From IMG/VR virus record IMGVR_UViG_2703718859_000024: 7,944 nucleotides of DNA, one strand, 5' to 3'. Shown piece by piece: positions 1 through 7,944 of this stretch (position 1 is the stretch's first letter; each line of letters begins with the position of its first letter). A program made the translations under genes and the position numbers. This stretch comes from a virus (lineage: Duplodnaviria; Heunggongvirae; Uroviricota; Caudoviricetes). The notes below the pieces were generated by a model. That model saw nothing but the letters and a program-made list of their open reading frames with translations, searched no databases and was not told where the DNA came from.

Positions 1-40
1 ATGCTGGTTGATGTGGCGCTCTGTGGCGCTCGTTTTGGTG

Positions 41-68
41 TGCTGGTGGCGGGGGTCGAACCCGCATA
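41..68. repeat. Direct repeat copy 1 (28 bp), resembling a tRNA T-arm plus acceptor 3' strand on the minus strand; candidate att core
   Basis: tgctggtggcgggggtcgaacccgcata at 41-68 versus tgctggtggtgggggtcgaacccacata at 146-173, 26 of 28 identical. Minus-strand reading GCGGG-TTCGACC-CCCGC-CACCAGC-A is a perfect 5-bp stem, a 7-nt T-loop of canonical form, and a 7-nt acceptor 3' strand. Confidence 0.6.
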
Positions 69-122
69 CATGATCAGCCTGTACAGGCTGGCACCGACTC
101 TACCCGTTGAGCGTACACCAGC
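41..122 (-). other. tRNA-like cloverleaf (non-canonical; possible tRNA pseudogene or displaced att-associated remnant)
   Basis: Minus-strand 82 nt: GCTGGTG (1-7) pairs perfectly with CACCAGC before the discriminator A. D-arm-like GCTC-AACGGGTA-GAGT has the conserved GG. Perfect T-arm GCGGG/TTCGACC/CCCGC. The central arm is a perfect 16-bp palindrome CAGCCTGTACAGGCTG (plus 75-90) giving a 5-bp stem with only a 6-nt loop. There is one extra nucleotide after position 9, and the 3' end reads CAC rather than CCA. Confidence 0.25.
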
Positions 123-145
123 AAAAAAGCGATGAGGTTGTTGGC

Positions 146-173
146 TGCTGGTGGTGGGGGTCGAACCCACATA
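146..173. repeat. Direct repeat copy 2 (28 bp), a degenerate second copy of the tRNA 3'-end-like sequence
   Basis: Same 28-mer with two substitutions, 105 bp to the right of copy 1. Minus-strand reading GTGGG-TTCGACC-CCCAC-CACCAGC-A. The upstream tRNA-like body is more degenerate than in copy 1. Confidence 0.55.
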
Positions 174-318
174 AACATCCCGCTTTCTGGAAGCTATACA
201 AGCGGGTGCCGCTTTACCGATTAAGAGTACACCATACAGCCAGGCAAAATAGTAATCATGCGTTATGTGCGGGTAAAGTCTGTTTCGTCTGGTAGCACCA
301 GATGAACGGGTATCATTA

Positions 319-394
319 TTTCACCTGATTTCACGTGATTTCGCTTAATTTCACAAAAATCACCTTCTTTCACCTTCTTTCACCTTCTTTCACA
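319..394. repeat. Helically phased array of eight TTTCAC-type 10-bp repeats, including three perfect tandem copies of CACCTTCTTT
   Basis: TCAC/TCGC cores begin at 321, 331, 341, 351, 360, 370, 380 and 390, each exactly 10 bp apart; CACCTTCTTT x3 sits at 361-390. The array is bounded by A runs and lies in non-coding DNA between the tRNA-like repeats and the Mor-like gene. Confidence 0.6.
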
Positions 395-528
395 AAAAAA
401 CAAATCATCATTAAAGCGCCTGATTCGCTCTCTGATGCGTTTTGGTGTTTTGTGGCGTCCGTGATGCCCTGAAAGGGGATTTTTTGCGATAGCGGCGCAA
501 ATATAACGGTTGCTGCTGGTATCTGTGG

Positions 529-936
529 TTAGTCTTGCGTGATTTTATTGGCGTGCTTCTTTCTCAGGCGTCGTATGATGTCGTAAATATGGGTTTCGGA
601 TATTGCGTACTCTTTGCGTAATGTCTGCAATTTTTCGCCGTTATCCCACCTGTAGTAAATCTCGTATTCGCGCAATGCTGCGAAAAGTGATCTGCCTGTT
701 GGAAGGTAAAGACTTCGCCCACCAGCATAGAAGGCGATTGCAGCGACAACCCGCTTTGCGATTCTGAAAGCGTCTGCCTCCTCCATGCCATTACGGGTAA
801 GCTCCGCTACTGAATGCGACACGATATCAGCAAGCGAATCACACCATGCATCACCTGGTTTATCTCCGTTGTCTATGGCGTCGATGAATTTAAGCCGCTC
901 GATGTCTTTTGGTACGTGATGGGTTTGCTCGTTCAT
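529..936 (-). CDS. Mor/C-family transcriptional activator (Mu middle/late operon regulator family)
   Basis: 135-aa ORF, ATG at 936-934 preceded by AAGAGG, stop TAA at 531-529. The C-terminal half (AFYAGGRSLYLPTGRSLFAALREYEIYYRWDNGEKLQTLRKEYAISETHIYDIIRRLRKK) aligns motif for motif with the Mu Mor region as I recall it (...LGGGQVYIPRGQALDSLIRDLRIWNDFNGRNVSELTTRYGVTFNTVYKAIRRMRR): GG, Y-x-P-x-G, NG, and the terminal IRR-x-R HTH. Confidence 0.65.
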   Translation of the reverse strand: MNEQTHHVPKDIERLKFIDAIDNGDKPGDAWCDSLADIVSHSVAELTRNGMEEADAFRIAKRVVAAIAFYAGGRSLYLPTGRSLFAALREYEIYYRWDNGEKLQTLRKEYAISETHIYDIIRRLRKKHANKITQD

Positions 937-1049
937 CCGGTAGCCTCTTGCGTTGGTGTATCTGGTCCTACCAGTTTAATTTAACGTCGCAATAAAACGA
1001 TATACACGCACACAATCAGAAAAACCGTCTGACTGTTCCGGTCCTGTGC

Positions 1050-1322
1050 TTACTTCTGGTAGCTACGCCAGATTTTTTTACATCTCCCTCCTATCCCCAT
1101 TTCTGCGTATGTGCGGTTTACTGCTTTCCTCAGGTCTGCGTAGTTCTCCTCTGGCGGCTCCGGTGGCCTCTGTGCCTTCCCGTAACACTCTGCCCTGCGC
1201 ATTGCCACCCGTTCGCGTTCCCTGTCTGTCTCCACCAGCATCATCACTTCGGCCCATCGCGCCGCCGTTCTCCGGTAAAAGCCTTTCGACTCCAGTTCTT
1301 CCGCTATGCGGTCATGTACCAT
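1050..1322 (-). CDS. Hypothetical protein, about 90 aa (ORF-track entry 1050..1442 trimmed to the internal ATG)
   Basis: ATG at 1322-1320 preceded by GGGGAG about 5 nt upstream, starting 10 nt after the SSB stop (TGA 1335-1333). Stop TAA at 1052-1050. The longer form would overlap the SSB C-terminus by about 110 nt. No family recognised. Confidence 0.45.
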   Translation of the reverse strand: MVHDRIAEELESKGFYRRTAARWAEVMMLVETDRERERVAMRRAECYGKAQRPPEPPEENYADLRKAVNRTYAEMGIGGRCKKIWRSYQK

Positions 1323-1332
1323 CGTTCTCCCC

Positions 1333-1743
1333 TCAGAACGGAATATCATCACCATAAGGGTCATCGCCTCCCGCTGGTGGCTGATTACCCTGTGTGCCTG
1401 TGGTCCTGCGTCTGCTGCCACCTGGTTGCGCCGTTTTCGCACTGATTACGCTGTCTGCAATAACCTGATAACCCTGCCGCGTTTCCCCGTTCTGTCCGGT
1501 CCACTGGCTGACCTGCATCACGCCGGATACGCTGATTACGTTGCCTTTCTCATGGTGTGCCAGTTGGTCGGCCTGTTTGCCAAATGCCAGGACCGACAGC
1601 CATAACGTCGCCTGCCCGTCCTGCGCCTGACTGCATGGCAGTGATACCGCCATACGCGCCAGCGTCATCGGTGTGCCCTTACTGGTCTGTTTTGTCTGCG
1701 GGTCGTCAATCAGTCGCCCGTAAGCTGCTATCTGTGCTGTCAT
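1333..1743 (-). CDS. ssb: Single-stranded DNA-binding protein (SSB) with conserved acidic C-terminal tip
   Basis: 136-aa ORF, ATG at 1743-1741 preceded by GGAGAGGTGG. The N-terminal ~110 aa fit the SSB OB-fold pattern (AYGRLIDDPQ...LWLSVLAFGKQADQLA...KGNVISVSGVMQVSQWTGQNGETRQGYQVIADSV), followed by a Gly/Pro/Gln-rich linker and a terminal DDIPF identical to the bacterial SSB tail. Confidence 0.85.
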   Translation of the reverse strand: MTAQIAAYGRLIDDPQTKQTSKGTPMTLARMAVSLPCSQAQDGQATLWLSVLAFGKQADQLAHHEKGNVISVSGVMQVSQWTGQNGETRQGYQVIADSVISAKTAQPGGSRRRTTGTQGNQPPAGGDDPYGDDIPF

Positions 1744-1981
1744 GATTCCACCTCTCCGGTTTTAACGTTGATGGTTGTTACCTGTTCCGCTTCTGCAATC
1801 TCCCGCTCTGTCAGCGTGGTAAAGTTTGTCGCTGCTGTGCTCATGAATGCACTTATCAGCCAGGGGGCTTTCGCGTGTCTTTCTGCCGTGTTGTGGCCCT
1901 TCGTTCACGAGCAAAACACTTAAATAAAAATAAAGTGATTTTCTGTGTTTTCGTGCTGCTCTGCTCTGTTTTTTTTTGCCG

Positions 1982-2181
1982 TTTACTCACCACTACTCAC
2001 TTTTTTTACTCACTTTTTGGAATCGCTCACTTCGTCTCACCTGAGATTTTTGGTGTTTTTATGTGTATGTTTTATAAGTGGTTTTTTACTGCTCACTTTT
2101 TTGCCTATATACAGGTGAGAAAGTGAGTAATTTTGTTAATTTTTTGTAAAATTACTCACTTTACTCACTTTTGCTCCTCAC
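1982..2181. repeat. Iteron array flanking an A+T-rich stretch: putative replication origin
   Basis: Nine direct copies of the core CTCAC (mostly as TTACTCACTTT) starting at 1986, 1996, 2009, 2026, 2036, 2092, 2155, 2164 and 2177, plus two inverted copies (GTGAG) at 2115 and 2123. Several are about 10 bp apart. They flank a T-rich segment at about 2041-2090, directly downstream of the replication gene stop at 2186. Confidence 0.55.
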
Positions 2182-2185
2182 TTTT

Positions 2186-3583
2186 TTACAGCGGTACTAC
2201 GTCATCGCCGTCAATGCGTATAGTCTCGTCTTTCTCCAGTTTTGCTAACCATCGCCGCATGTTTTTCACGTCATACCCAAGCCGTTTCATGTCGTCGCGC
2301 AACAACGAAATAGTGCACTTGTCGCCGTGCTGTGTGCGTGACCGGATGCACCCCCATAGCGCGGTATGGTTTTCCGTCTTGTTCCCTGCCTCCTCGATGC
2401 GCTCCTGTTCAACGGGAGGACGCGGCTTATCAACCACCACCAGCGACGTAATTAACTCCCCGTCAGCGTCGGTAAAAAGCTCCACCACGCGTAAGTCATA
2501 TGCTGCTTCTTTGAGTTCCTCCGCGTCCTTCATTTTGGTACATGAGATAACCAGCGCTTCGCTGCCTGCGTCCTCCCTGCGTATCCGGTATTCGGCGTCC
2601 AGTGATGCACGAAATGCACTGGAACCGCGCGCGCCTTTCGTCTCATCCTTGCCGGAATGGTGAACCACCAGCACCGTGGCCCCTGTGCGCCGTTTAAGCT
2701 CGTCACACCCACGGATAAACGCCCCCATATCACGGGAATCATTTTCATCATTGCCGCCAAAGCAACGCGCCAGCGTATCCAGAATAATCATGCGTACAGG
2801 TTTACCCGTTTCCCGCTCCACCTGGCGGGCAGCGATAACCATTTCATCAACATCAAGCGGGACAGCCGGAAAGATGGGACGGTTTACCAGATACAGATTT
2901 TTCACCTGCTCACCGTGCACAACCTCCCAGGCTTTTACACGACGCGGAACGCCGATACCTCCTTCACCAACCACATAGAGAACCGCACCATGCGCCACCC
3001 TGCGGCCTCCCCACTGGCGCCCCGTGGAAACGTGACACGCCCACGAACCCGCAAGGAACGATTTATAGGAACCGCTCGCCCCGTATATGCTGCATAGCGA
3101 CGATGCCGGAATAATCCCCTTTACCACGTAATCAAGTTGTGTATCGTATCCGGCAGAACCAACGCTCATCGGTAGCTTTGTTTTGCGCTGGTGGCCTTTT
3201 TCTTCCTGCTTTTCCCCGCGCTCCCGTTCCAGATATTCGCGCCAGTTCTCCCGCTTCTGGCTGTGCATCCCATCGGGGTAATAATTCGCATCCTGTACAC
3301 CTGCCGCTGCCAGCTTGTGCGCAATGGCATTAATATTTGATGGTCTGATATGGCCTGCCTTGTACAGCCGGACGCAATAGCGGCCCTCGTCGATGATTCT
3401 CATGTCTGTCAGTTCTGCCAGTTGCTGCTCCCCAAGCCATACAGGTGGCACATTATCGCCAGCAAGTCGGCCCTCCTGCTCCTGCCACTGCTTCGCGTGT
3501 GCCCAGGCATCACTACCCGCAAAAATAATGACCTCGGTCATTTTGTCGTAAGGCTGTTTTTTTAAGTTCGGTGCGCTTTTCAT
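2186..3583 (-). CDS. Replication protein: primase/helicase-like with RecA-fold (RepA/DnaB-like, AAA_25-type) ATPase domain
   Basis: 465-aa ORF, ATG at 3583-3581, stop TAA at 2188-2186. Deviant Walker A YGASGSYKS, Walker B-like MIILDTLAR, and VLVVHHSGKD (the hhhHHxGK motif typical of RepA/DnaB-type RecA-fold ATPases). An iteron array lies immediately downstream. The C-terminal ~100 aa could be a DNA-binding domain; that is inference. Confidence 0.8.
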   Translation of the reverse strand: MKSAPNLKKQPYDKMTEVIIFAGSDAWAHAKQWQEQEGRLAGDNVPPVWLGEQQLAELTDMRIIDEGRYCVRLYKAGHIRPSNINAIAHKLAAAGVQDANYYPDGMHSQKRENWREYLERERGEKQEEKGHQRKTKLPMSVGSAGYDTQLDYVVKGIIPASSLCSIYGASGSYKSFLAGSWACHVSTGRQWGGRRVAHGAVLYVVGEGGIGVPRRVKAWEVVHGEQVKNLYLVNRPIFPAVPLDVDEMVIAARQVERETGKPVRMIILDTLARCFGGNDENDSRDMGAFIRGCDELKRRTGATVLVVHHSGKDETKGARGSSAFRASLDAEYRIRREDAGSEALVISCTKMKDAEELKEAAYDLRVVELFTDADGELITSLVVVDKPRPPVEQERIEEAGNKTENHTALWGCIRSRTQHGDKCTISLLRDDMKRLGYDVKNMRRWLAKLEKDETIRIDGDDVVPL

Positions 3584-3879
3584 TTCTTGCCCCTGAATGC
3601 GTTAATCATCTTTTTCATCTTCTGTATTTTTGCCAGTGCCTTTACGTTGCTGGTGGGCACGTTACGCGGTACCGCCTGCACCAGAGAAAAATCACGGGAA
3701 AACTGATAAACAGGCATCACGCAATCATATTCGTAGCCTTTACGGCGGTAGGTGACGCACCGCCCCGCCACGCCCTTAATCATTACCGTGCCGCCGTACT
3801 GGTCGCGGTAAATATCACCGCGCTTAAATTCAGGGCGAGGCTTGCCGCTGGCAGTTAAGCCAGTTTTTTTCATGTTCAT
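3580..3879 (-). CDS. Hypothetical protein, 99 aa, translationally coupled to the replication gene
   Basis: ATG at 3879-3877 with AAGGA about 9 nt upstream. Its stop TGA (3582-3580) overlaps the ATG (3583-3581) of the downstream replication gene in an ATGA arrangement. Basic protein, no family recognised. Confidence 0.5.
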   Translation of the reverse strand: MNMKKTGLTASGKPRPEFKRGDIYRDQYGGTVMIKGVAGRCVTYRRKGYEYDCVMPVYQFSRDFSLVQAVPRNVPTSNVKALAKIQKMKKMINAFRGKK

Positions 3880-3952
3880 TTTTTTATCCTTTGTTCTGGT
3901 CAGTTACGCCGTTGCTGCATAAATGCGGTTAGCTGTGACTGTCGTTGCCTTA

Positions 3953-4267
3953 TCACGAATGGCGATAATCAGTACTGATATCTCCGTTACGGCAACGCCA
4001 GTTGTACACCTCCACAACCTCACTGAATCCGGCCACAAGTTCAGCCGTAACAGCGATGGAATCGCCCAGGCTGCGCAGTTCGTCCATGTCAGGATCAATG
4101 CTGTCACTCATGCCAGAAAGTAAGCGCCCTGTGATAGCCAGCCCTTCAAGCAATTTGCGGGCGTAGAAGTCAGCATCATCAAACATCGCTCTCGCTTCCC
4201 GTGCGTCAGCTGCTTTTATGGTTGTAACCAGTTGTTCAAGTATTCTGGTGTTACACACATCACGCAT
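3953..4267 (-). CDS. Hypothetical protein, about 104 aa (ORF-track entry 3953..4297 begins at TTG; the internal ATG is preferred)
   Basis: ATG at 4267-4265 preceded by GGGGGGA and overlapping the stop of the 154-aa gene by 8 nt, the same geometry as the junction between the two paralogs. Stop TGA at 3955-3953. No recognisable motif. Confidence 0.45.
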   Translation of the reverse strand: MRDVCNTRILEQLVTTIKAADAREARAMFDDADFYARKLLEGLAITGRLLSGMSDSIDPDMDELRSLGDSIAVTAELVAGFSEVVEVYNWRCRNGDISTDYRHS

Positions 4268-4724
4268 GACGTCCCCCCTGACGAATACGGGCGACAAAAA
4301 TCAGATGGGTATGCGGAAGTTGTGCGCGGGTTTCGCGTTCTGTTGCTGCCGTGGCGGTAAAGGGTGAGGCTTGTTTTTCATGGCACTGCATAAAGCGCCA
4401 GACAAAGTAAGGGCGTGCGGATACAGCCATGTGAAAGGCTCCTGTAGTGAAATTAAGGAGTCTCGCTACTACGCTGCTAAACATGGTGGCGAGACGTAAC
4501 GGGGTTAGCAGACTGGCACTACAGGAACCAGCGAGCGCAAAGGCTCCCCCGTTACGCCCCGCCATAATGCGGGTATGGGTAGGTTTACGGACGCAAAAAA
4601 ACCGCATATCGGAATGTAAGCGGCTGTCCGCTGTAGTATTCAGGCTGCTAAACCCGGTCGCCATGTGGGCGACTCCGGCATCATACAGCCCGAAAGAAGA
4701 GGCGATCAACATGTTTTTAAGCAT
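4260..4724 (-). CDS. Hypothetical protein, 154 aa; downstream member (A) of the tandem paralog pair
   Basis: ATG at 4724-4722 preceded by GGGGGTGAG and overlapping the 3' end of the upstream paralog by 8 nt; stop TGA at 4262-4260. C-terminus ...FVWRF...TERETRAQ...IFVARIRQGGRHA parallels ...FIWRF...TEREARNR...VFAARIRQGVSHA of the 181-aa protein. Confidence 0.5.
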   Translation of the reverse strand: MLKNMLIASSFGLYDAGVAHMATGFSSLNTTADSRLHSDMRFFCVRKPTHTRIMAGRNGGAFALAGSCSASLLTPLRLATMFSSVVARLLNFTTGAFHMAVSARPYFVWRFMQCHEKQASPFTATAATERETRAQLPHTHLIFVARIRQGGRHA

Positions 4725-5262
4725 GACTCACCCCCTGACGAATACGGGCAGCGAATACAGCGACACAACCGGACGGGCAACGGTTACGCGCTTCGCGTTC
4801 CGTCCAGGCGGTTACGTGGATAATTTGACGTTCTGACGTGCCAAAGGTGATAAAACGCCAGATAAAGGCAGTCTGAGAATGTACGAGGGCTGGGGTAGTA
4901 GCCATGATGGCAGCCTCCTTTATCGTTGGGATATACCCACCGCTGGAGGTTCCAATCTCGCTGGCGGTGGACTGCACGGAGTTGGAACTACTGGCGATAA
5001 AGGAAACCAGCCTGACCGAAGTCAGCCCCATACAGCCCACCATTGATAAGGTGTGCGTGTGCGCCGATACAAAAAAAGACGCGTTCGGCGTCTGTATCGC
5101 CTTTATCTCCAGCGGGGTTCCAATCCCGACACCCGTTTTATAAGGTGCGCGGGAATCATAGCCATTTTTGATACTGGCGATCAACTGATTTTCTCTGGCG
5201 GGTATTTGGCGCGGATGCCTGTTGCCTGTGACAATATGCACACGACTGTATACAATACACAT
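4717..5262 (-). CDS. Hypothetical protein, 181 aa; upstream member (B) of a tandem paralog pair
   Basis: ATG at 5262-5260 preceded by AAGGAG at about 8-nt spacing; stop TAA at 4719-4717. Homologous over its length to the next gene (shared N[MQ]LIAS, YD, FF, THT, WRF, TERE and C-terminal ARIRQG..HA). The corresponding plus-strand ORF is not preserved in the other copy. Confidence 0.5.
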   Translation of the reverse strand: MCIVYSRVHIVTGNRHPRQIPARENQLIASIKNGYDSRAPYKTGVGIGTPLEIKAIQTPNASFFVSAHTHTLSMVGCMGLTSVRLVSFIASSSNSVQSTASEIGTSSGGYIPTIKEAAIMATTPALVHSQTAFIWRFITFGTSERQIIHVTAWTEREARNRCPSGCVAVFAARIRQGVSHA

Positions 5263-5436: not shown

Positions 5437-5640
5437 TTATTCCTGCTGATAACGCTCCTCTACTTTCTTCTCAAGCCATGATTTCACCTCATCCTCAAAC
5501 CAGCCAACGCGACGCAATCCACGCTTAAAGCCAGGAATAAACTCACCAGCCTTAACCATTGTGTCAATGCTTGTTGTACTAAGGCGAAGAAGATTTGCGA
5601 CTTCTCGTTTTGTAAGGATTTTCTTTTCTGTGATGTTCAT
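5437..5640 (-). CDS. alpA: AlpA-family phage transcriptional regulator / excisionase-like HTH protein
   Basis: 67-aa ORF, ATG at 5640-5638 preceded by AAGGAAAG RBS, stop TAA at 5439-5437. Sequence ...LLRLSTTSIDTMVKAGEFIPGFKRGLRRVGWFEDEVKSWLE matches the AlpA/Xis-type pattern (HTH then conserved VGW...E...WL). Confidence 0.75.
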   Translation of the reverse strand: MNITEKKILTKREVANLLRLSTTSIDTMVKAGEFIPGFKRGLRRVGWFEDEVKSWLEKKVEERYQQE

Positions 5641-5777: not shown

Positions 5778-6674
5778 TCAGTCGTCAACGTCTGCAAGCC
5801 ACTTACCAACAGATGAAGGGGTTGCGCCAATTTCAACCCCTGCTTTGGTTAGTGCGCGGCTTAACTTGCTGTGACCGTTCTCAAGCGCTCTTCTTGGGTT
5901 TGCTGCCTCTTCTTCTCCGGCTATGGCGGTGATTAGTCTTTTGATAACTCTGGCCTGAAGATTGGTTGTTTTCTTACTCTGCGAATGCGACAAGGCGTGT
6001 TTATCTGAAAAATCCTTTACCATATCTCCTGGTTGTCTGCCGCCGTTCATTACTATTTTTATCTCTTCTTTTGAGATGAAAATGTCACTAATATTTATTG
6101 TTTTGCCATATAAATTTATTGTTATCTTTGGTTCTTTTCCTTTATCTGCTATAACGATGCGTCGCACATAACAATCTGTGACGTCATTTGATAGATTCTC
6201 TATATCAATGCTTGTATTAAATACCTGTAAAAGTCCTGAAGCCACAACCCTGATTTTATGTGGTAACTGTGTTCTGATTTTTCTTTGTTTATATCCATGA
6301 TAGTTGTATATAAAAATATCTGTTTCAGAATAACCGCCACAGCAATTAAAAAATATCTTTTCCGTTAGCTGTTCTTCATCGGTTATTATTTTTTCACCAA
6401 AAGATGAGGATTCAAGTAATTTTAATATGTCGGTTGCTCTGATGAATACGCCTTCATCATTTTCATAATAATAATCTGATGCTGATACACTATTAAATGC
6501 GTTTTTATAATTATGTAATGTCAAAACCTCGTCTATGTGATGACGGTACCAAAAACACATCTTCCCTGTAGCGATGAAGTGAATCAAATCATCAACGTCA
6601 CACCCAAGCCTTCTGGCTGCCTTGTCTAACGGGTAATAATCCCTTTCAGGAAGGTTTATCTTTTTGTTTGTCAT
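5778..6674 (-). CDS. Hypothetical protein, 298 aa, with helix-turn-helix-like N-terminal segment; A+T-rich 5' two-thirds, ordinary-GC 3' end
   Basis: ATG at 6674-6672 lies 4 nt downstream of the integrase stop, on the same strand; stop TGA at 5780-5778. Residues ~13-38 (YYPLDKAARRLGCDVDDLIHFIATGKM) fit an HTH pattern. Hand counts of 60-nt stretches inside 6000-6360 give roughly 25-40% G+C, versus ~50% or more in neighbouring genes. I recognise no family for it. Confidence 0.6.
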   Translation of the reverse strand: MTNKKINLPERDYYPLDKAARRLGCDVDDLIHFIATGKMCFWYRHHIDEVLTLHNYKNAFNSVSASDYYYENDEGVFIRATDILKLLESSSFGEKIITDEEQLTEKIFFNCCGGYSETDIFIYNYHGYKQRKIRTQLPHKIRVVASGLLQVFNTSIDIENLSNDVTDCYVRRIVIADKGKEPKITINLYGKTINISDIFISKEEIKIVMNGGRQPGDMVKDFSDKHALSHSQSKKTTNLQARVIKRLITAIAGEEEAANPRRALENGHSKLSRALTKAGVEIGATPSSVGKWLADVDD

Positions 6675-6678
6675 GCCC

Positions 6679-7944
6679 TTAACCGTTAACCATTTTTAAC
6701 CCACGATAGCCACCTGTGGCGCTTACGCTCCCGCTTGCGGCTGCCTCTACAAAATTCCCCCACCACGCCATTAACGGGCGTCGCTGCTCGAGATAGGTTG
6801 AGCGGTTGTACGCGCGGCGAACCTCGTTTTTGTCTATGTGTGACAATGCCGCCTCGATTACGTCAGAGTCAAAACCTTGCTCGTTAAGTGCGGTACTTGC
6901 TATTGAGCGCAAGCCATGAGCAACCAGCCGCCGACCAAAACCCATGCGTTTTATTGCTGCGTTTGCTGTTTGTGTGCACATAGGGCGCTGCGGGTCGCTG
7001 TTGTGTGGAAATATAAACTCACGATGCCCGCTTATTGGCTTCATGACATCCAGAATGGCTAACGCCTGCTTTGAGAGTGGTATTACGTGTTCCCTGCGTT
7101 GTTTAAGTCTGTGCTCTGGTATGCGCCATTCCTTCGCCTCAAAATCAATCTCACACCAGCGCGCGCCAGCTGCTTCACCTGGTCGGCAAATTGTCAGTAA
7201 CTGCCACTCAATAACCAGCCGCGTTTGTCGTTCCACTCGTGCCGTTGCCAGCTTCTGCATAAAATCGGGGAGTTCTTCAGGGCGTATTGCTGGCATGTTC
7301 TTAGCGCTCGGCGCGTTAAATGCCTTGTTTATCTGTGATGCCGCATTCGCGGTAATCATTCCGGTATTAACGGCGTAATACATGACCTCATTGATTCGCT
7401 GCGCCGTTCTTCTGACGGTATCTAATTTCCCCTGGGCGGCTAATGGTTTTAATGCTTCGATGAAGTTGCTTGCGATCAGGTCTGCTACTGGTCTGTTGCC
7501 GACTGACGGGAATACATTACGCTCCAGCGAGCGCCATGTATCGCGTAGTGTGCCTTCTGCGAGTCCTTGCCCTTTTTTAAGTTCAAACCAAAGCGTAGCT
7601 ACATGCCTGAAGGTGTTCTCTCTCTTCATCACTTCACTAAGGCGCTGTTTCTCTCTGTGCTCTTTTGGGTCAATGCCACCAGAAAGAAGCGCCCTGTATT
7701 CGTCTTTTATCTTTCGCGCGCCCGCAATGCTTATTTCTGGATATGCGCCAATGCTTAACATGGCCCGTTTTTTTGTGTGTGGCTTGTAGTAGCGGTAACG
7801 CCACAAGCAAGAGGCGCTTTTGTGCTTAATCACCAGTTCCAGCCCTTCGCCGTCAGTGATGAAAAGGTCCTTTTTTTCGTTGCTGGCTTTTCGCTGGAGG
7901 CTTTTTATCGCTGCTGGTGATAAGGACTTAGTTTTTTTGGTCAC
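6679..7944 (-). CDS. int: Tyrosine recombinase, P4-family phage integrase; first codon GTG lies on the window edge, so the N-terminus may continue beyond the window
   Basis: 421-aa minus-strand ORF ending in TAA at 6679-6681. C-terminal catalytic region shows box I arginine (ICRPGEAAGARWCEID), box II HGLRSIASTAL...LSH and the tyrosine-bearing RRAYNRSTY. N-terminal region (GEGLELVIKHKSASCLWRYRYY...IGAYPEISIAGARKIKDEY) looks like the arm-binding domain of P4-type integrases. Confidence 0.9.
   Translation of the reverse strand: MTKKTKSLSPAAIKSLQRKASNEKKDLFITDGEGLELVIKHKSASCLWRYRYYKPHTKKRAMLSIGAYPEISIAGARKIKDEYRALLSGGIDPKEHREKQRLSEVMKRENTFRHVATLWFELKKGQGLAEGTLRDTWRSLERNVFPSVGNRPVADLIASNFIEALKPLAAQGKLDTVRRTAQRINEVMYYAVNTGMITANAASQINKAFNAPSAKNMPAIRPEELPDFMQKLATARVERQTRLVIEWQLLTICRPGEAAGARWCEIDFEAKEWRIPEHRLKQRREHVIPLSKQALAILDVMKPISGHREFIFPHNSDPQRPMCTQTANAAIKRMGFGRRLVAHGLRSIASTALNEQGFDSDVIEAALSHIDKNEVRRAYNRSTYLEQRRPLMAWWGNFVEAAASGSVSATGGYRGLKMVNG

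Follow-up and report, generated by a model that had tools for sequence, protein, structure and literature searches.

What does a transcription activator of the kind found in Mu-like phages do at the end of a satellite-like island, and whose genes would it turn on? The question is raised by a stretch of viral DNA of 7,944 nucleotides (Caudoviricetes; IMG/VR record IMGVR_UViG_2703718859_000024; "the window" hereafter means this whole stretch). A sequence-only reading of it had named a Mor/C-family activator at the distal end of a satellite-like island and suggested that it might hijack late transcription in a Mu-like or other helper. The answer we favor, held at slightly under even confidence, is that the island is a satellite of Sp18-type Mu-like phages in which Mor would be a functional activator and part of a helper-exploitation cassette. 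On what we consider the best explanation of the sequences, the ancestry of the island Mor lies among the late-gene activators of Mu-like phages, and the capsid and packaging block of the island's capsid-forming relatives has been swapped for this activator, a phased repeat array, and two phage-shared tRNA-like genes. The gene and the elements that lie beyond it are as follows.

529-936, minus strand: Mor/C-family transcription activator gene (135 aa, an ATG-to-stop open reading frame [ORF])
311-408, minus strand: array of about eight units, phased at 10 bp, reading GTGAAA in gene sense (TTTCAC on the plus strand); repeat family D1
378-398, minus strand: 19/21 match, by local alignment, to left-end nucleotides 35-55 of Sp18-type Mu-like phages (TTTTAGTGAAAGGAGGTGAAA)
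146-240, minus strand: tRNA-like gene 1, annotated by RefSeq as "tRNA-OTHER" in the copy designated L001
41-122, minus strand: tRNA-like gene 2, annotated by RefSeq as "tRNA-Tyr"; Rfam tRNA at 35 bits (gathering score 29)

The family assignment held up well. In the Pfam check that the sequence-only reading had proposed, the protein scored 81.9 bits with Mor (PF08765; E 3.9e-23), for which the curated cut-off is 24.9, and profile positions 3-102 of 107 were covered; PHROG 532, "late transcriptional activator," matched at E 3.3e-28. A search of solved structures retrieved those of the Mu late activator C (9l0x and 9vw8) at E 5e-14 and that of Mu Mor (1rr7) at E 3e-7, so the island protein is nearer to the late activator C than to Mor. 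Identity to Mu C is only 31%. By phmmer, residues 17-131 of the island Mor align onto residues 15-128 of Mu C; in the family alignment, the GGRSLYLP beta-strand linker and the C-terminal helix-turn-helix (HTH) both line up. A Pfam scan at E <= 0.1 gave Mor alone for this protein and no Ogr/Delta zinc finger. As a gene, mor is an unremarkable representative of the Mor/C family; what is new in this case is its setting, a capsid-less satellite cassette linked to Mu-like phages.

Cryo-electron microscopy of Mu C and Mor has identified the residues that touch DNA and RNA polymerase (RNAP), and mutating R72, Y75, Y115, R48, or R122 of Mu C abolished or strongly suppressed activity (bioRxiv 10.1101/2025.05.02.651988). 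Residues essential to Mu C are identical in the island Mor both in the beta-strand (R72, Y75, and P77) and in the HTH (S110, Y115, and R120), as are the RNAP-contacting R48 and R122. The positions associated with specificity are unlike those of Mu C, R98 being replaced by E, Q113 by H, and Q116 by D. The mor reading frame is intact in every copy examined, and alleles taken from two island backbones show 14 synonymous versus 6 non-synonymous differences; the resulting dN/dS of 0.10 points to purifying selection, and the gene is not decaying. These residues give the island Mor the look of an active family member, with a DNA specificity that cannot be read from Mu C.

The same comparison bears on whether the protein might instead act as a decoy. 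Mor/C proteins are tetramers of intertwined dimers (bioRxiv 10.1101/2025.05.02.651988), an assembly open to poisoning by a paralogue 47% identical to the helper's activator, and the minor-groove loop arginines R30 and R33 of Mu C are lost in the island Mor. A decoy homologue would mix with the helper activator or compete for its sites, mistiming or damping helper late transcription to the benefit of the satellite or for the protection of the host population. Helper late transcription is indeed targeted by the Staphylococcus aureus pathogenicity island (SaPI) SaPI2, through PtiA/PtiM acting on LtrC, and by the phage-inducible chromosomal island-like element (PLE), through CapR, and we count both in favor of interference. 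Nevertheless, the RNAP contacts R48 and R122 and the essential R72, Y75, and Y115 are kept, as expected of an active activator, and a capsid-less satellite needs the helper's late genes on. We regard interference as rather unlikely.

To return to the activator as such, its best match among 50,697 phage records is 47% identical over 116 residues and belongs to a Mu-like phage that is found inserted into Shiga toxin (Stx) phages. It corresponds to the Sp18 type known from O157 Sakai and occurs in 231 of 5,426 complete Escherichia coli genomes. The activator is the phage's single Mor-family gene and lies between gemA/gp16 and the lysozyme gene, i.e., in the position of a late activator. Sp18 itself is reported to be intact, spontaneously induced, and efficiently packaged (PMC2669165). 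A word-indexed protein search for the island Mor returned E. coli clusters alone, and an exhaustive search of 1.8 billion cluster representatives gave 455 Mor relatives at E <= 0.001, with no companion of the E. coli island Mor within 50% identity. The near relatives P0006 and P0008 reside in Mu-like phages, where P0006 adjoins a second Mor-family gene and P0008 has holin, transglycosylase, Gp27, portal, and Mu F genes immediately downstream of it.

The genomes that carry the module also tend to carry this phage. The stretch that replaces the capsid block (window 240-1050) was found in 14 of the 5,426 complete E. coli genomes, the module match being just 93-94% identical in 6 of these 14. Co-occurrence was scored with a chimeric query (811 bp of the island plus the 426-bp Sp18 activator gene), from which places matched by the island part only were subtracted. 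The Sp18-type activator gene was present in 12 of the 14 module genomes versus 193 of the 5,412 others (3.6%; Fisher's exact test, p = 5e-16, odds ratio 162). Most module carriers are Shiga toxin-producing E. coli (STEC). If Sp18-type phages are given a frequency of 25% within STEC, which is an assumed estimate, 12 of 14 is still very unlikely.

The STEC background invites a reading in which Mor is cargo, altering host or virulence expression in the manner of PerC and playing no role in satellite transfer. Mor does sit beside a PerC-family gene at the accessory end of the island, most carriers are STEC as just described, and PerC is a recurrent gene of phage-inducible chromosomal islands (PICIs), one PICI homologue of which has been shown to affect expression of the enterocyte effacement locus, LEE (PMC11773190). 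Against this, all close relatives of Mor with a readable context belong either to Mu-like phages or to satellites of this kind, mor travels with a phage-derived array and tRNA-like genes, and the co-occurrence is specific to one phage type. A cargo role is, in our view, quite improbable.

The architecture extends beyond E. coli. The nearest cluster representative, P0005, is a Salmonella enterica protein 41-44% identical to the E. coli island Mor, and it is encoded at the distal end of a capsid-less island at yicC with int, AlpA, Ash, C4/isrK, Toprim, and DUF927. Downstream of the Salmonella Mor lie a GTGGAATC repeat array analogous to that in the window, a stretch TTTTAGTGAAAGGCGGTGTAATCA, and two tandem tRNA-like genes; such tandem pairs occur at 11394-11575 of the Salmonella satellite L008 and at 11215-11392 of a second one, L009. 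Genomes with the Salmonella satellite are GCA_006407615.1 and GCA_044185635.1. The arrangement of Mor, array, and tRNA-like pair is conserved across deep divergence. The recognition helix of Mor and the repeat unit both differ in Salmonella (GTGGAATC versus GTGAAAT). The Sp18 activator is 47% identical to each of the E. coli and Salmonella satellite Mor proteins, which are no closer to each other than to the Sp18 activator.

The array next to mor provides a further tie to the phage. The segment at 378-398 is the best local match in the window for the first 100 nt of the phage, with a score of 32 that was reached by 0 of 300 shuffles (mean 21.9 +/- 2.3). In L005, a 45 kb locus holding a whole Sp18-type prophage, a 16-mer of this match occurs once, at the phage left end. 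A search of IMG/VR with the 22-nt motif gave 22 matches, and 22 of 22 were Mu-like left ends, the motif standing equidistant from the TGTAACC terminus, past which the sequences diverge. The same phage segment is matched at 21/24 positions in the Salmonella satellite L008 (again reached by 0 of 300 shuffles) and at 22/24 in L009, there read by eye downstream of Mor. The array has stayed together with the module in L001 and in two further E. coli island copies (L006 and L007), and neither array nor left-end motif was found in two inspected capsid-forming PICI (cf-PICI) relatives (L003 and L004).

In Mu, the pac site lies in the left end, and packaging begins just outside it and proceeds by headful (PMC5557969). 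The array in the window combines a left-end match with regular spacing. Because phased repeat arrays are typical binding sites of small terminase subunits, we read it as a candidate amplified pac mimic. More broadly, we consider it a candidate for either a helper packaging-signal mimic or an activator binding array. Three other roles were considered and rejected. Separate iterons lie 3' of repA (1990-2190), and cf-PICI relatives with an 85% identical RepA lack the array, which rules it out as a replication origin; a different repeat, GTATGCCTTTTT, present in two copies, occurs at both island ends, which speaks against integrase arm sites; and a single GATACC beside the array was judged within chance as a sign of Mu transposase sites, the end repeats of Sp18 having TTTGATACYRA in common. 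As a separate observation, the array length shifts by 10-bp steps: three GTGAAAGAAG-type units are present in the window and two in L007 (~11075-11145), and the L001 array (~6311-6398) is 10 bp shorter than that of the window. Steps of this size suggest slippage within a functional phased array.

Mor could instead be a purely internal regulator that drives satellite promoters, e.g., those of the tRNA-like genes, and not those of a helper, perhaps by binding the array. In favor of this, the array is placed right between Mor and the tRNA-like genes, recognition helix and repeat unit both change from E. coli to Salmonella as co-variation of protein and site would predict, and the DNA-contact residues are unlike those of the helper's activator. 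We would like to note, though, that no sigma-70-like promoter passed a scan of window 1-1500, that the array includes the phage left-end match, and that the co-occurrence with Sp18 and the phage late-activator homologues would go unexplained unless the tRNA-like RNAs act on the helper. Self-regulation alone strikes us as somewhat unlikely. A sigma-70 promoter for the tRNA-like genes that was picked out by eye (TTTACC, 17 nt, TACTAT; 8/12 matches), and that ends about 7 nt before tRNA-like gene 1, was set aside given the negative scan.

The tRNA-like genes lead back to Sp18-type phages as well. Homologues 80-86% identical are found in many E. coli genomes, annotated as tRNA-OTHER, and where they can be placed they lie within a few kb of the Sp18-type activator/lysis region; for instance, among tRNA-OTHER elements 80-83% identical to gene 1, two lie about 6 kb from that region in the same genome. 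In the one prophage fully inspected, an 86% identical homologue of gene 2 lies antisense in the gap between the head genes F and G (L005 22119-22198, minus strand). Since the homologues are antisense between F and G, the satellite tRNA-like RNAs would partly complement the helper late transcript. A search of IMG/VR with the T-arm pattern found 18 contigs, 4 of which also carry the left-end motif. Across four satellites the acceptor, D, and T arms are conserved and the central ("anticodon") arm differs in every lineage. In its predicted fold, gene 2 shows a canonical acceptor and T arm together with an "anticodon" hairpin whose loop is only 4 nt long, so that it is probably not a decoding tRNA. 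ARAGORN found no tRNA at 41-122, and in the locus L002 neither ARAGORN nor Rfam made a call for the tRNA-like element, although its sequence is present; the likeness to tRNA is weak.

Taken together, four independent sequence lines (nearest homologue, co-occurrence, left-end match, and tRNA-like genes) make a strong circumstantial case for tying the capsid-less cassette to Mu-like phages. For the sequence-only reading, the observation is confirmed and the interpretation partly borne out, its guess of a Mu-like helper gaining this circumstantial backing.

The island was also compared with its relatives. The window is matched by 1,841 E. coli records, most of them over just ~1095-5192 (ash to PerC) at ~85% identity. 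The two inspected relatives, L003 and L004, are cf-PICIs, and the ~85% identity shared with them spans ash, Icd, DUF4222, RepA, SSB, and PerC. After PerC, both encode a major capsid protein, protease, portal, head-closure protein, connector, HNH protein, and small and large terminase. Mor, the GTGAAA array, and the tRNA-like genes stand where L003 and L004 have this capsid/portal/terminase block. A second backbone, seen in the one island (L007) inspected among the six genomes with a 93-94% module match, occupies the yicC-dinD site with a different integrase and has Toprim and DUF927 primase genes replacing RepA; the module running from SSB through PerC, Mor, and array to the tRNA-like genes is ~93% identical across the two backbones, and PerC and SSB are damaged in the L007 copy. 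Listed alleles of the E. coli Mor protein clusters were found on >2,000 contigs of public assemblies, almost all of which bear the label E. coli. As to a wider distribution, protein-pattern and DNA scans of one genome per species (GTDB representatives) found nothing. Separately, we observed three copies of the Mor module in a single genome, that of E. coli JNEC-KY203 (NZ_AP045179.1); the two inspected are complete islands, one in mdtP (L001) and one beside nfeF (L006), with differing integrase alleles.

This comparison could also be taken to mean that Mor, array, and tRNA-like genes are debris of recombination between a cf-PICI and a Mu-like prophage, leaving a defective deletion derivative. 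The island does lack the capsid module that its relatives have, the interval between repA and ssb contains small pseudogene fragments, and PerC and SSB are damaged in L007. In contrast, mor has a dN/dS of 0.10 and an intact frame in all copies examined, and the module is found on two backbones, in Salmonella (41-44% protein identity), and three times in one genome, the inspected copies being at different sites; the named E. coli alleles alone account for >2,000 contigs. Nor can the capture be recent, because the island Mor is just 47% identical to the phage gene. We find the remnant explanation extremely improbable.

The remainder of the island supports the description of it as satellite-like. 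It is a PICI-type island of ~8.3 kb with all major ORFs on the minus strand, in the order int, AlpA-like HTH, ash, C4-RNA/Icd immunity, RepA helicase, SSB, PerC, Mor. The copy in JNEC-KY203 (L001) is 96.7% identical to the window and is flanked by both halves of a split mdtP; a short direct repeat, CCGGGATG..TTGAACTG, marks both mdtP junctions, with the att core inside mdtP. The term "satellite-like island" is thus well founded on the integrase, AlpA-type regulator, and replication gene and on the split mdtP with its direct repeats. The placing of Mor at the distal end proved equally accurate: the integrase stands at one island end, no protein gene lies beyond Mor at the opposite end, and past Mor, with the island end ~200 bp beyond the window start, the two tRNA-like genes are the sole annotated genes. 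The other features of the window are listed here from the integrase toward Mor.

6679-7944, minus strand: tyrosine integrase with a P4-type arm-binding domain (Pfam Phage_integrase, Phage_int_M, Arm-DNA-bind_3)
5778-6674, minus strand: 298-aa protein with no Pfam or PHROG match
5437-5640, minus strand: AlpA-like HTH regulator/excisionase (Pfam Phage_AlpA and HTH_17; PHROG 66)
4260-5262, minus strand: duplicated P1/P4-type immunity region with C4 and isrK-like RNAs and Icd-like/Ash-like ORFs (Rfam, RefSeq)
4482-4569 and 4960-5047, minus strand: two C4 antisense RNAs (Rfam 77.6 and 73.5 bits)
4595-4673 and 5072-5148, minus strand: two isrK-like RNAs (Rfam 61.5 bits for the first and, short of the gathering score of 50, 36.6 bits for the second)
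3953-4297, minus strand: 114-aa protein with no Pfam or PHROG match
3580-3879, minus strand: DUF4222 protein (Pfam E 1.8e-23)
2186-3583, minus strand: RepA-family (AAA_25) replicative helicase (Pfam PF13481 E 2e-43; PHROG 2850)
1990-2190, unstranded: probable replication origin with ACTCACTTT iterons plus an inverted repeat, immediately 3' of repA
1333-1743, minus strand: single-strand DNA-binding protein, SSB (Pfam SSB E 1e-15)
1050-1442, minus strand: PerC-family regulator directly upstream of Mor (Pfam PF06069 E 2.2e-37)

Going by its counterparts in the PICI literature, the AlpA-like HTH protein is presumed to be the master activator of the island operon. The repeats of the origin region comprise families D2 and D4 and inverted repeats I1 and I10, and from the usual PICI layout the iterons are probably the replication origin. 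The RefSeq start shortens PerC to 89 aa (1050-1319), and cf-PICI relatives carry PerC at the matching position. Several side observations concern the rest of the island. The GTATGCCTTTTT repeat occurs twice near both island junctions (L001 5862-5885 and 13988-14011, outside the window), and these repeats are probably arm-type sites of the integrase. The L007 and L008 islands have an unannotated gene of similar size in the position of the 298-aa gene, between int and alpA; the 298-aa and 114-aa proteins are conserved island proteins. The C4/isrK/Icd-like unit is in tandem duplicate, a P1/P4-type RNA immunity within a PICI-like island, and two C4 copies are also present in the Salmonella satellites and the second E. 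coli backbone. Additionally, the ssb-repA stretch at 1745-2186, which overlaps the putative origin iterons, contains no intact gene; RefSeq places a small pseudogene fragment there in homologous copies, and cf-PICI relatives have two small ORFs in its place.

With these parts in hand, the satellite reading can be set out as a sequence of steps. Upon induction of the island, an AlpA-driven leftward operon would be read through to Mor, which by its position would be made late. By analogy with Mu C, the Mor tetramer would bind just upstream of promoters lacking a -35 element and recruit sigma-70 RNAP; activators of this family occupy such promoters from about -30 to -55. Its likeliest targets would be the helper's operons for lysis, head, and tail, whether the Sp18-type phage is resident or co-infecting. 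These late operons are the most economical target because a satellite that no longer has capsid and terminase genes of its own depends on their products. The helper's headful terminase might then package satellite DNA from the pac-like array. Trans-activation of helper late genes, in the manner of P4 Delta acting on P2, is plausible.

Several points weigh against this reading. A helper in its lytic cycle makes its own activator, and the need for a second is not self-evident. At the positions of the base-contacting Q113 and Q116 of Mu C, the island Mor has H and D and the Sp18 activator Q and T, and the minor-groove loop reads AWCDS in the island Mor, RWPRS in Mu C, and NWPRT in the Sp18 activator; since both the base-contacting residues and the loop differ, the same promoter specificity cannot be assumed. 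The recognition helix as a whole reads SETHIYDIIRR in the island Mor versus SETQIYTVIRE in the Sp18 activator. Upstream of the Sp18-type lysozyme and protease/scaffold genes (L005 14895-14980 and 22830-22890) we found a shared sequence, CACTT..CTGA.A..CCGCAAARCCYGCC, a candidate for the late-activator binding site with its -10 element. The provisional Sp18 late-promoter motif derived from these two, the clearest late promoters of the phage (CCGCAAARCCNGCC, ~18 nt, then TAYGCT) had chance-level matches only in the window, i.e., it is absent there, and reciprocal control of the island by the helper likewise showed no sign. As to the co-occurrence, 2 of the 14 module genomes have no detectable Sp18-type activator gene, and shared clonal ancestry, along with the frequency of both elements in STEC, inflates the association. 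The location of Mu pac with which the island's match would coincide is reportedly left-end nt 32-54 (Groenen & van de Putte in 1985; Harel et al. in 1990).

A bolder version of the satellite reading, which we regard as possible though doubtful, holds that this is the first satellite family to parasitize transposable Mu-like phages and that it does so by means of a portable three-part hijack cassette. In such a cassette, a diverged helper late activator would turn on the helper's morphogenesis and lysis genes, an amplified helper left-end packaging signal would capture the headful terminase, and a pair of tRNA-like RNAs with hypervariable central arms, copied from the antisense head-cluster element, would act on the helper or on host defenses. 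If the satellite reading is true, an 8 kb element that replicates freely could hijack packaging of the Mu type, for which integrated copies are the normal starting point. The hypothesis can be put to a direct test, since well-studied STEC strains contain active Sp18-type phages.

To our knowledge, the helpers of known PICIs are lambdoid or P22-like phages, and the characterized satellites (P4, SaPI/PICI, cf-PICI, PLE, and phage-inducible chromosomal minimalist islands [PICMI]) exploit P2-like, lambdoid/P22-like, siphovirus, or ICP1-type helpers. A full-text literature search found no report of a satellite with a Mu-like transposable helper or of one carrying a Mor/C activator. Like the Gram-negative PICIs and cf-PICIs (EcCICFT073, EcCIEDL933, and EcCIMP1), the island has int, an alpA-type regulator, a replication gene, and PerC, a size of ~8 kb, and site-specific insertion. 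Neither lysis nor tail genes are annotated in it, and it is in these respects a PICI. It is not a cf-PICI: where those elements have their own capsid, protease, portal, head-tail adaptor, HNH, and terminase genes, it has Mor, the array, and the tRNA-like genes, and no other packaging gene appears among the island annotation and its Pfam and PHROG matches. The authors of SatelliteFinder counted >6,000 unclassified "Type C" PICI-like islands (PMC10085698), among which this island would probably fall; if the satellite reading is true, it would supply a function for some of these islands that satellite finders have set aside.

The protein itself is best compared with Mu C and Mor (PF08765; 9l0x, 9vw8, 1rr7, and 9l0y), to which it is homologous over essentially its full length, with the same size, about 130-140 aa across the family, the GGRxxYxP beta-strand linker, the C-terminal HTH, and the essential DNA-binding and RNAP-contact residues. 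It differs from them in the low identity to C and in positions 113/116 and the minor-groove loop. The setting also differs: the Mu genes belong to a transposable phage and lie between the early region and the lysis/late genes, whereas mor is in an integrase-bearing satellite, where PerC precedes it and tRNA-like genes, not lysis genes, come next. The Sp18-type activator is the closest phage homologue and occurs in the same genomes, in a phage whose sequences resemble the island array and tRNA-like genes, but its recognition helix differs from that of the island Mor, and the island lacks the phage's provisional late-promoter motif.

In its logic, the arrangement is closest to that of P4, a satellite whose Delta is a diverged copy of the late activator Ogr of its helper, P2. 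The island shares with P4 a P4-type integrase, an AlpA/Vis-like regulator, C4/CI-type antisense RNA immunity, and an Ash-like gene, and is without the capsid-size genes sid and psu. The helper of P4 is P2, whereas the putative helper of the island is a transposable, headful-packaging phage, and the zinc finger of Ogr/Delta is unrelated to the HTH of the island's Mor/C protein. If the satellite reading is true, the strategy of P4 Delta evolved a second time, with an unrelated protein family.

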